From contig JBGAFY010000001.1 of the NCBI GenBank assembly GCA_044226975.1, forward strand, positions 1-38,107: a stretch of 38,107 nt of DNA, written 5' to 3'. The notes beneath the pieces are model-generated. The model did no database searches. It was not told the origin of the DNA and worked only from the letters and a program-made list of their open reading frames with translations. Positions 28,470 to 35,937 of the stretch are shown in pieces; the first letter of the stretch is position 1; the number at the start of each line of letters is the position of its first letter. The translations under genes and the position numbers were made by a program. Source of the DNA: Rhabdochlamydiaceae bacterium (lineage in GTDB: Bacteria; Chlamydiota; Chlamydiia; Chlamydiales; Rhabdochlamydiaceae).

Positions 28470-28967
28470 TTATTTCTTAGGGTATTCTTCTAAGACTTTA
28501 ATGAGAAGAGGCTGGCGCAGATCAAGGAAGGCTTTTCTTGTCGCTTTATCTTCGCCAAAATGAAACCCTAACACCCCGAGCGGCTCTATTCTCCCAGAAG
28601 AGTAAATCATCAACTGCTTTGTAGGGGCTTTTTTTTCGTTCCAGGAAAATTCAACTTCATTTCCTAAAACAATTTTTCTTCCTTCCATGTCTTCTAAAGC
28701 TGGCTCTAAAGTATGGAATATGCAAGTGGCCTTCTCGTCAATTTTTTTCAAATCTACTCGAATGTCAGCGCCCGATGCCATAGCTACAATTTGCGCGGAG
28801 CGTAATGAGGTGAACAAAGATGTGATCCCATGCTCAAACTCTTGTTCACGAACAAAACGCACCATTTTAAAGCCCACCCAGCTTGCCACAGTGCCAATTA
28901 TCAAAAGGCATACCATGATCTCGACTAAGGTGAACCCTCTACGCTTACTTTGAATCGGATTCTTCAT
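28470..28967 (-). CDS. type II secretion pseudopilin (GspH-like minor pseudopilin)
   Basis: From ATG 28967: MKNPIQSKRRGFTLVEIMVCLLIIG, the canonical prepilin G/FTLxE N-methylation motif. The start overlaps the gspG end. Confidence 0.75.
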   Translation of the reverse strand: MKNPIQSKRRGFTLVEIMVCLLIIGTVASWVGFKMVRFVREQEFEHGITSLFTSLRSAQIVAMASGADIRVDLKKIDEKATCIFHTLEPALEDMEGRKIVLGNEVEFSWNEKKAPTKQLMIYSSGRIEPLGVLGFHFGEDKATRKAFLDLRQPLLIKVLEEYPKK

Positions 28968-29326
28968 GCTTGTCATCGTATTCTTTAAGTGCATCCGATT
29001 TAACAATAATATTACGATTGGATCTCCCGTCTGCATCAATCTTAATGGTTCCTCCCCAACCATCGATAAGGATTTTATCTGCTTCTTCTTTAAAGAATGA
29101 TGAATTCGCCAAGATCTCCCCAGCTCTCTCTACCACTTTATCGCGCGTTTTGCTATTTCTAGCTCGAGGACATCTTTAATTTTCTCGATCTGGTCCTTGT
29201 TTTAAAGGCTTTGCCATCTTCAAGTGAGTCTTTCATCTTAAATCCAATCACACTGCCTATTAGGCTAATCAAAAAGATCACGACCATGATCTCGATGAGT
29301 GTTAAGAGCTTTCTTTTCTTTTTCAT
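28945..29326 (-). pseudogene. gspG: major pseudopilin GspG-like, two frame breaks
   Basis: From ATG 29326: MKKKRKLLTLIEIMVVIFLISLIGSVIGFKMKDSLEDGKAFKT, then a shift to DQIEKIKDVLELEIAK, then a second shift to RDKVVERAGEILANSSFF...DGWGGTIKID... Confidence 0.7.
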
Positions 29327-34636: not shown

Positions 34637-35937
34637 ATTTTTCCTCCCAACGTATTGAGATAGCTCGGCCTTCGCTTACGCTGTTTTACTTGCGTGCGTT
34701 GTTCATTTACGACAGTCCATTGAACGGGAGAACAAACAGAGCGTGCCTCGTCAAACCAGTGGCCTCTGATCATGAGCTTATTTTCGTCTTGGAACACTTG
34801 ATCAAAAATTAATAGCTCTCCATTGAGAGAACGATTGATGATCCCATCGACTTCTGAAAGCCGCCTAATTACTCTCCATCCTTTTTGAGTCTTTAACAGC
34901 CAGTCTCCTTCACGCACCAAGATACGCCGTTTGCCTGCTAGACATGAGAACTGCTGATGTGTTTTGGGGCGGAAAGTAGTGAAAATATTTTCTATTTTAC
35001 TTCCAGAAGGTTTCGAATATTCTTTTCCTAAGTGTATTTTGCCCCAACCAAACCCGGACTCATCCCAAACCTCAATTTCAGCACCTTCCTCGCTAATAGC
35101 TTTGACACGTGCAAGAGGTTTACCTTTGCATGCATCATCAAGCATTGTTGCCTTCCACTCGCGATTTTCCCATTTAAGGAAATCTCCTGCGCCAACAAAT
35201 TGCACTGAGGCCTCTCGCCCTTCCTTAAAACGGATAACACTTTTGTTTTTCAAAGAAAGCAAAGCGGCCCCGCTATATTTTTCGAGTAAAAGATCACGAC
35301 CTAAAAATTTTCCTTGAGAGATGATGTGGTGGTAATCTAAGCCAGCCATTTTCTCTTCGGTCTTATTTTCAGATAGCGTCACTATTTCTTGGTCTTGACG
35401 CTTCATCACCAAGCTGTTCCGCGCGACAGACTCTTCAAACGTACATTCTATTAAAGTTCGGGCCTGGTCCAAAATTAATGGTCGGATGCAGAGAGGAGTC
35501 TTTTCATTTGTAAAAATTAATCTCGAACTTCCATCACCGGAGTCCTCATGAGCTAAAAACACAATTTCCCCATTGGTTAAGGTCTTTTTTTGGCCAGAAA
35601 GATTAAGCTCAAGAACAATACATGGATCGCTTCTTAAAAGATCAGGACGTGTAGAAACAGCTAACACGTTGAGCTCTTTAAAAATCTCTAAAGAAAAACT
35701 TGCTCGTTGTTTGCCGCTGAGCGAGAACATCCCAGATGAGATCATATCGGCATTTTCTTTCAGCTCAAATTGAGACGATCCTTGCCTCAATGCATTCGCC
35801 CTGCCATTAATGGACTGATAAGAGAAAAGACTCCATCCGTACCAACCAAGGAGCAGGCAGCAAAGTAGAATAGCAAAAGGAAATGACCGATCAAGCATTC
35901 GGTCCCATCTCCAAAGCGAAGACGGAGTTACAATCAC
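34633..35937 (-). CDS. membrane-anchored hypothetical protein at the head of the gsp operon (possible GspC analogue)
   Basis: 434 aa. 4-bp overlap with the gspD start. N-terminal TM FPFAILLCCLLLGWYGWSLF. GTG start at 35937, or ATG at 35898. The GspC role is assigned from position only. Confidence 0.55.
   Translation of the reverse strand: MIVTPSSLWRWDRMLDRSFPFAILLCCLLLGWYGWSLFSYQSINGRANALRQGSSQFELKENADMISSGMFSLSGKQRASFSLEIFKELNVLAVSTRPDLLRSDPCIVLELNLSGQKKTLTNGEIVFLAHEDSGDGSSRLIFTNEKTPLCIRPLILDQARTLIECTFEESVARNSLVMKRQDQEIVTLSENKTEEKMAGLDYHHIISQGKFLGRDLLLEKYSGAALLSLKNKSVIRFKEGREASVQFVGAGDFLKWENREWKATMLDDACKGKPLARVKAISEEGAEIEVWDESGFGWGKIHLGKEYSKPSGSKIENIFTTFRPKTHQQFSCLAGKRRILVREGDWLLKTQKGWRVIRRLSEVDGIINRSLNGELLIFDQVFQDENKLMIRGHWFDEARSVCSPVQWTVVNEQRTQVKQRKRRPSYLNTLGGKI

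Follow-up and report, generated by a model that had tools for sequence, protein, structure and literature searches.

The type II secretion locus and its relatives

The window analysed here is a complete NCBI contig (JBGAFY010000001.1, 38,107 bp, ~42% GC) from a Rhabdochlamydiaceae bacterium, and our subject is the type II secretion (gsp) locus on its minus strand, where the deposited sequence has frameshifts in gspE, gspF and gspG. From 35.9 down to 28.5 kb the gene order on this strand is a 434-aa open reading frame (ORF), gspD, gspE, gspF, a 173-bp palindromic element resembling a miniature inverted-repeat transposable element (MITE), a gspG-like gene, a gene for a GspH-like pseudopilin and a PEBP gene. 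An earlier description made from the letters of the contig alone (hereafter the sequence-only reading) had given the same order, with the 434-aa protein, the GspD of 780 aa and the GspH-like protein intact and the genes between them disrupted, and both the ORFs and the domains bear this out. In Chlamydia trachomatis, gspE, gspF and gspG adjoin the gene CT572. The product of CT572 is GspD (PMC6686042), and in more than 150 related Chlamydiota loci gspE likewise adjoins gspD. The cluster in the window is a standard chlamydial type II secretion locus: it runs gspD-gspE-gspF-gspG and on to a second pseudopilin gene, its GspD combines Secretin and Secretin_N domains, and its GspF has two T2SSF domains. 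It departs from the chlamydial cluster in the frameshifts in gspE, gspF and gspG, in the 173-bp element inserted between gspF and gspG, and in an upstream gene whose 421-aa product has no match to GspC models.

According to a genome scan with GspD, the closest relatives of the window are environmental Chlamydiota placed in Rhabdochlamydiaceae or Simkaniaceae. One of them, L001, is a hybrid 'opera' contig of a metagenome-assembled genome (MAG) with 97% amino acid identity in GspD and ~90% nucleotide identity to the window; its gspE (525 aa), gspF (395 aa) and gspG are intact. Via the 90% protein cluster of the L001 GspE we reached a set of Logan short-read contigs that are 92-99% identical to the window, namely L081-L085, L166-L168 (covering gspG, gspH and the downstream region, 95-99%), L171 (the right contig end) and L172 (positions 3-23 kb of the window). 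The closest of these for the broken genes, L081, is 96.8% identical to the window across 36036-29489. The genes that are broken in the window are intact, wherever covered, in all nine related assemblies fetched. A search for a second, independent assembly of this strain was unsuccessful: looking up the window GspD, 421-aa protein and PEBP protein by exact sequence returned nothing, a protein-cluster look-up returned these three only from the window contig itself, and a scan of JGI metagenomes yielded nothing closer than 67% identity. A search with GspE likewise gave no intact copy from the window's own lineage; the closest GspE (P0124, an NCBI protein of 436 aa on a 4,045-bp contig) lacks its N-terminus, perhaps because of a contig edge or of another frameshift.

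The indel map and the counts of changes per branch rest on pairwise alignment to L081 with indel-favouring scores, and changes were polarised with L081, L082, L084 and L001. A MAFFT alignment to the 90%-identical L001 had misplaced some indels and inflated the non-synonymous counts, hence the realignment to L081.

The secretin gene gspD (32294..34636) is a single, uninterrupted ORF of 780 codons, with both domains recognised by Pfam (Secretin, PF00263, at 7.8e-32; Secretin_N, PF03958, at 4e-14); its best NCBIfam match is the GspD model TIGR02517 at 165 bits against a cut-off of 351, the subtype thus being assigned by best match and gene context only. The ATPase gene gspE (30718..32290) is as deposited not one ORF, the longest piece having 149 aa. 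Its product can nevertheless be traced: it starts with MVISSQPDLESL at 32290, reaches AEVLRVT at 30761-30741 and has its stop near 30718. The coordinates that the sequence-only reading gave for GspE are confirmed, among them those of the Walker A motif (31457-31428). With its frame restored it is a complete GspE, matching T2SSE over the entire model (1-370 of 370, at 2.8e-136) plus MshEN, and the intact orthologue in L081 passes the cut-off of TIGR02533 (639.2 versus 630.25). The restored product of gspF (29515..30696), the platform protein, has its two T2SSF domains at 6.5e-46, and the best match of the L081 orthologue is the GspF model TIGR02120, at 300.7 bits and under the cut-off of 424. 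The gspG-like pseudopilin gene (28945..29326; 129 aa in relatives) lies in three frames owing to two frameshifting deletions. Its orthologue in L166 gives weak N-terminal matches to the NCBIfam models of GspG (TIGR01710, 28.6 bits versus a cut-off of 88.85) and GspH, and the restored product of the window has no Pfam match. The GspH-like pseudopilin (28470..28967, 165 aa, the longest ORF reaching upstream to 29063) is intact, carries an N_methyl motif and has no indels relative to L166, whose orthologue weakly matches the GspH model TIGR01708.

Upstream of gspD lies the intact 434-aa ORF (34633..35937), called in relatives as a 421-aa gene from an ATG at 35898. The protein hits no Pfam or NCBIfam family at E <= 0.01 and matches no GspC model; the label 'gspC-like' attached to it by the sequence-only reading would therefore be one of position only. 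It is kept upstream of gspD in close relatives, and across wider loci its identity is only ~28%.

Distribution and spectrum of the indels

The frameshifts of the locus fall into a single patch (patch 1, 29153..32292) of 38 small indels, ~1 per 80 bp, reaching from the gspD-gspE spacer into gspG. Alignment to L081 reveals 36 of these events, all within 32292-29514 and every one of 1-2 bp (30 single-base and 6 two-base events; 22 are deletions, 14 insertions). Twenty of them hit gspE (16 of 1 bp, 4 of 2 bp) and 14 gspF, and one each is found in the gspD-gspE spacer and at the MITE edge. In gspG, for which L166 is the reference, one nucleotide is missing at 29191 and seven at 29153, with clean alignment thereafter; the 7-bp deletion has left a single copy of a GCAAAAG/GCAAAAC direct repeat. 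The sequence-only reading had likewise counted two shifts in gspG, and it had seen gspF in at least six pieces. For gspE it recognised the breaks in frame and undercounted them as roughly a dozen; two of the three sites it cited are confirmed (32131-32136, where A5 has become A6, and 31668-31671, where CC is inserted), and the third, placed at 31759-31764, corresponds to an extra C at 31754.

Indels are the only lesions in these genes, and once the frames are restored no in-frame stop codon is encountered; the sequence-only reading had likewise noted indels and not substitutions. Restored GspE is identical to the L081 protein at 505 of 526 positions (with 13 codons touched by indels) and restored GspF at 380 of 396 (with 11 such codons); their identity to relatives is 98-99%. 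The 3.7 kb formed by the adjoining 421-aa gene and gspD, in which 48 indels would be expected at the density of the patch, contains none relative to L081. Comparing the patch with the remainder of the L081 alignment gives 36 indels and 50 substitutions inside versus 0 and 118 outside (Fisher p = 1.5e-16), so the indels of patch 1 are clustered far beyond chance. Substitution divergence within the patch, measured pairwise, is 1-2.8% and does not exceed the level outside it.

With the changes polarised, the window branch has 34 indels and 27 substitutions (15 synonymous, 12 non-synonymous) in gspE and gspF, and 0 indels and 26 substitutions (21 synonymous, 5 non-synonymous) in the 421-aa gene and gspD. 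Synonymous divergence is equal in the two blocks, and the damaged region is therefore not older or faster-evolving. Indels make up 56% of all window-branch changes in gspE and gspF, a share to be compared with the 1.8-11.9% of spontaneous mutations that they represent in most organisms and with ~26% in the most indel-prone bacterium measured (PMC8717266); the binomial probabilities of the observed share under these rates are 2e-16 and 8e-7, respectively.

The kind of sites affected is also informative. The proportion of sites hit increases with run length from 0.7% for single bases to 2.5% for 2-mers, 13% for 4-mers and 38% for 5-mers, and neither of the two 8-mers is hit, whereas natural slippage favours the longest runs. 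Outside the patches, indels between strains are mostly larger than 2 bp, being 5-199 bp relative to L001 and including one 55-bp element relative to L082, and a comparison with L082 over ~370 bp of intergenic DNA near the locus shows no such 1-bp indels.

The comparison of dN/dS (the ratio of non-synonymous to synonymous substitution rates) with orthologous gsp loci, a check proposed in the sequence-only reading, gave values against L001, indels removed, of 0.080 for gspE and 0.103 for gspF, in the range of the intact neighbours (0.04-0.12), which include gspD at 0.038 and the 421-aa gene at 0.10. The differences of gspE and gspF from L001 lie mainly at third codon positions.

Two candidate explanations can be set aside at this point. 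Rescue of expression by programmed frameshifting or slippage is rejected, as a single gene would need 20 shifts, in both directions and mostly outside slippery runs. A recombination or strain-switch boundary at gspD/gspE is likewise rejected, the nearest relative remaining constant in sliding-window distances.

MITE copies, further indel patches and other small elements

The damage is not restricted to the secretion locus: the contig has two more clusters of indels and three genes with isolated frameshifts, none of which the sequence-only reading had mentioned. Patch 2 (37392..37967), defined by alignment to L171 and L001, comprises 8 indels of 1-2 bp, ~1 per 72 bp and hence at a density like that of patch 1. 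Seven of them lie in a gene for a 264-aa hypothetical protein (37941-37149, minus strand), which is intact in L001 and L171, and the eighth precedes its start by 26 bp. The patch is adjacent to the MITE copy at the contig end, and in the window the final 243 bp of the gene are free of indels (p = 0.03 under uniform decay). Patch 3 (6789..6971), seen in the alignment to L172, consists of 6 deletions that together remove 7 nt from a 183-bp stretch of a gene in the TolA position (6609 to ~7357, plus strand; 249 aa in L172), of which the other 566 bp are clean (scan p ~0.005). This broken gene belongs to a tolQ-tolR-...-tolB-pal cluster, and tolQ, tolR, tolB and pal beside it are intact. The isolated frameshifts, identified against L172 and L166, are two 1-bp insertions at 14651 and 14653 in an NFACT/RqcH-like gene, an inserted C at 15910 in an MFS transporter gene, and a change from A7 to A6 at 19269 that shortens a 921-aa TPR protein at its N-terminus. 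In all, frameshifts affect ~8 of roughly 40 genes on the contig; the cause is always a small indel, and no gene is interrupted by a stop codon. The indels are strongly patchy, and ~27 kb of the contig are nearly clean.

The element between gspF and gspG (29341..29513) is a 173-bp near-perfect palindrome (DNA fold -59.6 kcal/mol, z = -15) flanked by TAAG and inserted exactly on the stop codon of gspF, where it precedes the ribosome-binding site of gspG. The sequence-only reading had called it a MITE, and two more copies on the contig, at 12697-12799 and at 38042-38107 (the latter truncated by the right contig end), agree with this; members of the family are 103-173 bp long, TAAG-flanked and share the terminal inverted repeat AGAGACTGTTAACGGATTCAG. 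Five Logan contigs of related strains carry the terminal 17-mer at their ends, from which it follows that the MITE is multi-copy and breaks short-read assemblies. At the gspF-gspG site the element is present in the strain represented by L081 and L166 and absent from L168 and L001. MITE insertion as the cause of the damage is rejected, given that the L081/L166 strain has the same insertion together with intact gspE, gspF, gspG and gspH. A MITE copy directly borders patch 1, and another borders patch 2.

Other small repeats and hairpin-like elements were also noticed. A perfect 33-nt inverted repeat (36420-36452 / 36551-36583, with a 98-nt spacer) overlaps the start of an RF-1-domain (ArfB-like) gene (36464-36057); relative to L001 the window has a 25-bp insertion at 36513, and the ArfB-like protein is called as 117-144 aa in relatives. 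Upstream of tolB, ~128 bp of the window (8878-9015) are absent from L172; this segment, which overlaps a 65-nt imperfect inverted repeat (8850-8914 / 8926-8990), may be another small hairpin element. L082, in turn, carries a 55-bp palindromic element (~453-507) between the genes for a 127-aa membrane protein and the ArfB-like protein, absent at the corresponding position 36696 of the window, which represents a presence/absence difference of a small hairpin element among close strains.

Consensus errors or gene decay

The indels exist, they are confined to patches and have an error-like spectrum, and they come with neither the substitutions and stop codons nor the relaxed selection of real decay. 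Frame-shift errors by which genes are split are a known feature of long-read metagenome assemblies (PMC7966762), and the window resembles long-read or hybrid assemblies with such errors in several respects: indels of 1-2 bp greatly outnumber substitutions and become more frequent with homopolymer length, restoring the frames yields clean reading through the genes, the indels also hit unrelated genes, and patch 2 lies by the contig end while patches 1 and 2 each touch a repeat. Assembly errors would leave behind 1-2 bp indels in excess but no excess of substitutions, patches that disregard gene function and clean read-through, and this is what is found here. We therefore read the frameshifts of gspE, gspF and gspG, with a probability of about 0.85, as local consensus errors in a poorly polished deposited contig rather than as gene decay. 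The sequence-only reading had offered a local patch of poor consensus at 28.9-32.3 kb as one of two possibilities, and it is this one that the evidence favours, with limits at 32292 and 29153.

The patches may derive from noisy, probably long-read data that were left unpolished, or were poorly polished, with accurate reads. In one respect the window differs from typical assemblies of this kind, as its errors are strongly patchy and not contig-wide, which points to uneven polishing or gap filling. The technical cause could be a gap fill in a hybrid assembly, or polishing may have failed close to multi-copy MITEs and sequence shared between strains. The adjacency of patches and MITE copies would fit such an origin, e.g. 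if noisy reads were used to fill or bridge a break that the repeat had caused.

Several observations weigh against consensus errors and have to be considered. The first indel (32292) lies 2 nt past the gspD stop codon, so that patch 1 spares gspD exactly; selection on a retained secretin would predict just this, and a random technical boundary would be so neat only a few percent of the time. The ratio of non-synonymous to synonymous changes on the window branch is higher in gspE and gspF (12:15) than in the 421-aa gene and gspD (5:21; p = 0.08), and higher than for gspE and gspF on the L081 branch (0:10; p = 0.015), and an outgroup-polarised count for GspE gives 20 window-derived versus 7 L001-derived changes. 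Several of the window-derived changes sit beside indels, and a few substitution errors in the consensus would give the same non-synonymous signal. No indel patch is seen in murI, which adjoins the third MITE copy (12697-12799), and the 7-bp deletion in gspG is repeat-mediated and could be a natural event. A purely short-read de Bruijn assembly, if that is what this contig came from, would not readily generate such errors, and the actual reads would then have to contain the indels.

The main alternative is that gspE, gspF, gspG and the genes for the 264-aa protein, the TolA-position protein and the NFACT, MFS and TPR proteins are true pseudogenes of a degenerating symbiont, in which gspD and its upstream gene are maintained by selection, perhaps for another role at the outer membrane. 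The start of patch 1 right after the gspD stop, the mild non-synonymous excess in gspE and gspF and the repeat-mediated gspG deletion all speak for it, the affected genes could all be dispensable, and the window shares with the decaying genomes of host-restricted bacteria both the presence of several disrupted genes in one region and proliferating small mobile elements, MITE proliferation often accompanying genome decay. However, real decay brings nonsense mutations, larger deletions, dN/dS rising towards 1 and roughly ten substitutions per indel, and none of these is seen here. Four independent measures contradict decay, namely selection (dN/dS of 0.08-0.10, with no nonsense codons), the indel/substitution ratio (34 to 27 on the window branch, far beyond any measured natural spectrum), the spectrum itself (no indel above 2 bp in 32292-29514, the 8-mers spared, and the nearby intergenic DNA free of such small indels) and the spread to other genes, two unrelated ones being hit at the same density and, in patches 2 and 3, over only part of their length. 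The relatives are all intact, including the strain with the same MITE. The other possibility named by the sequence-only reading, that the cytoplasmic and inner-membrane half of the machine was inactivated very recently while the secretin was kept, is accordingly not supported, because 36 indels cannot accumulate in so short a time without roughly ten times as many substitutions. We consider genuine decay unlikely.

A narrower version, in which the indels are real and an environmental chlamydia has just lost the ATPase, the platform protein and the major pseudopilin of its type II secretion system through indel-biased mutation, with the secretin and the upstream gene under purifying selection, appears somewhat less likely still. 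Many indels with few substitutions would also be explained by a local indel-prone process, such as repeated error-prone break repair, or strand slippage after loss of mismatch repair, acting on genes that were already dispensable, and the window-branch substitutions are indeed 89% transitions in gspE and gspF compared with 62% in the upstream gene and gspD. Nevertheless, loss of mismatch repair acts genome-wide and chiefly on long runs, whereas here 8-mers are spared, single bases are affected and intergenic DNA is untouched, and we know of no process that yields three separate patches of 0.2-3 kb at ~1.3% indels or more. Direct evidence for such a process was not found, and we regard this scenario as very improbable. 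The consensus could also be wrong in a different manner, as a chimera of merged reads from co-occurring related strains, and several lineages at 92-97% identity, with the MITE present or absent at the gspF-gspG site, do occur in related samples. Strain mixing should mainly produce mosaic substitutions, however, and with patch divergence not raised and the nearest relative unswitched, this variant of an assembly artefact is the least likely of the readings considered.

The distinction matters for chlamydial biology. C. trachomatis has no secretin homologues other than GspD and YscC (PMC6686042), and if the decay were true, a chlamydia keeping only the secretin of its type II secretion system would imply a second role for GspD, with a bearing on chlamydial DNA uptake or protein export; were the indels real, the secretin would function independently of the secretion machinery, e.g. 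as a DNA-uptake channel or in another export route. If the frameshifts are consensus errors, as we favour, ~8 of roughly 40 genes on the contig are mis-called as pseudogenes or fragments, and a 111-aa fragment derived from one of the frameshifts is already present in a protein collection as a singleton cluster. The type II secretion locus would then most likely be intact in the living organism, and any pseudogene counts or claims of a loss of secretion drawn from this MAG would be wrong.

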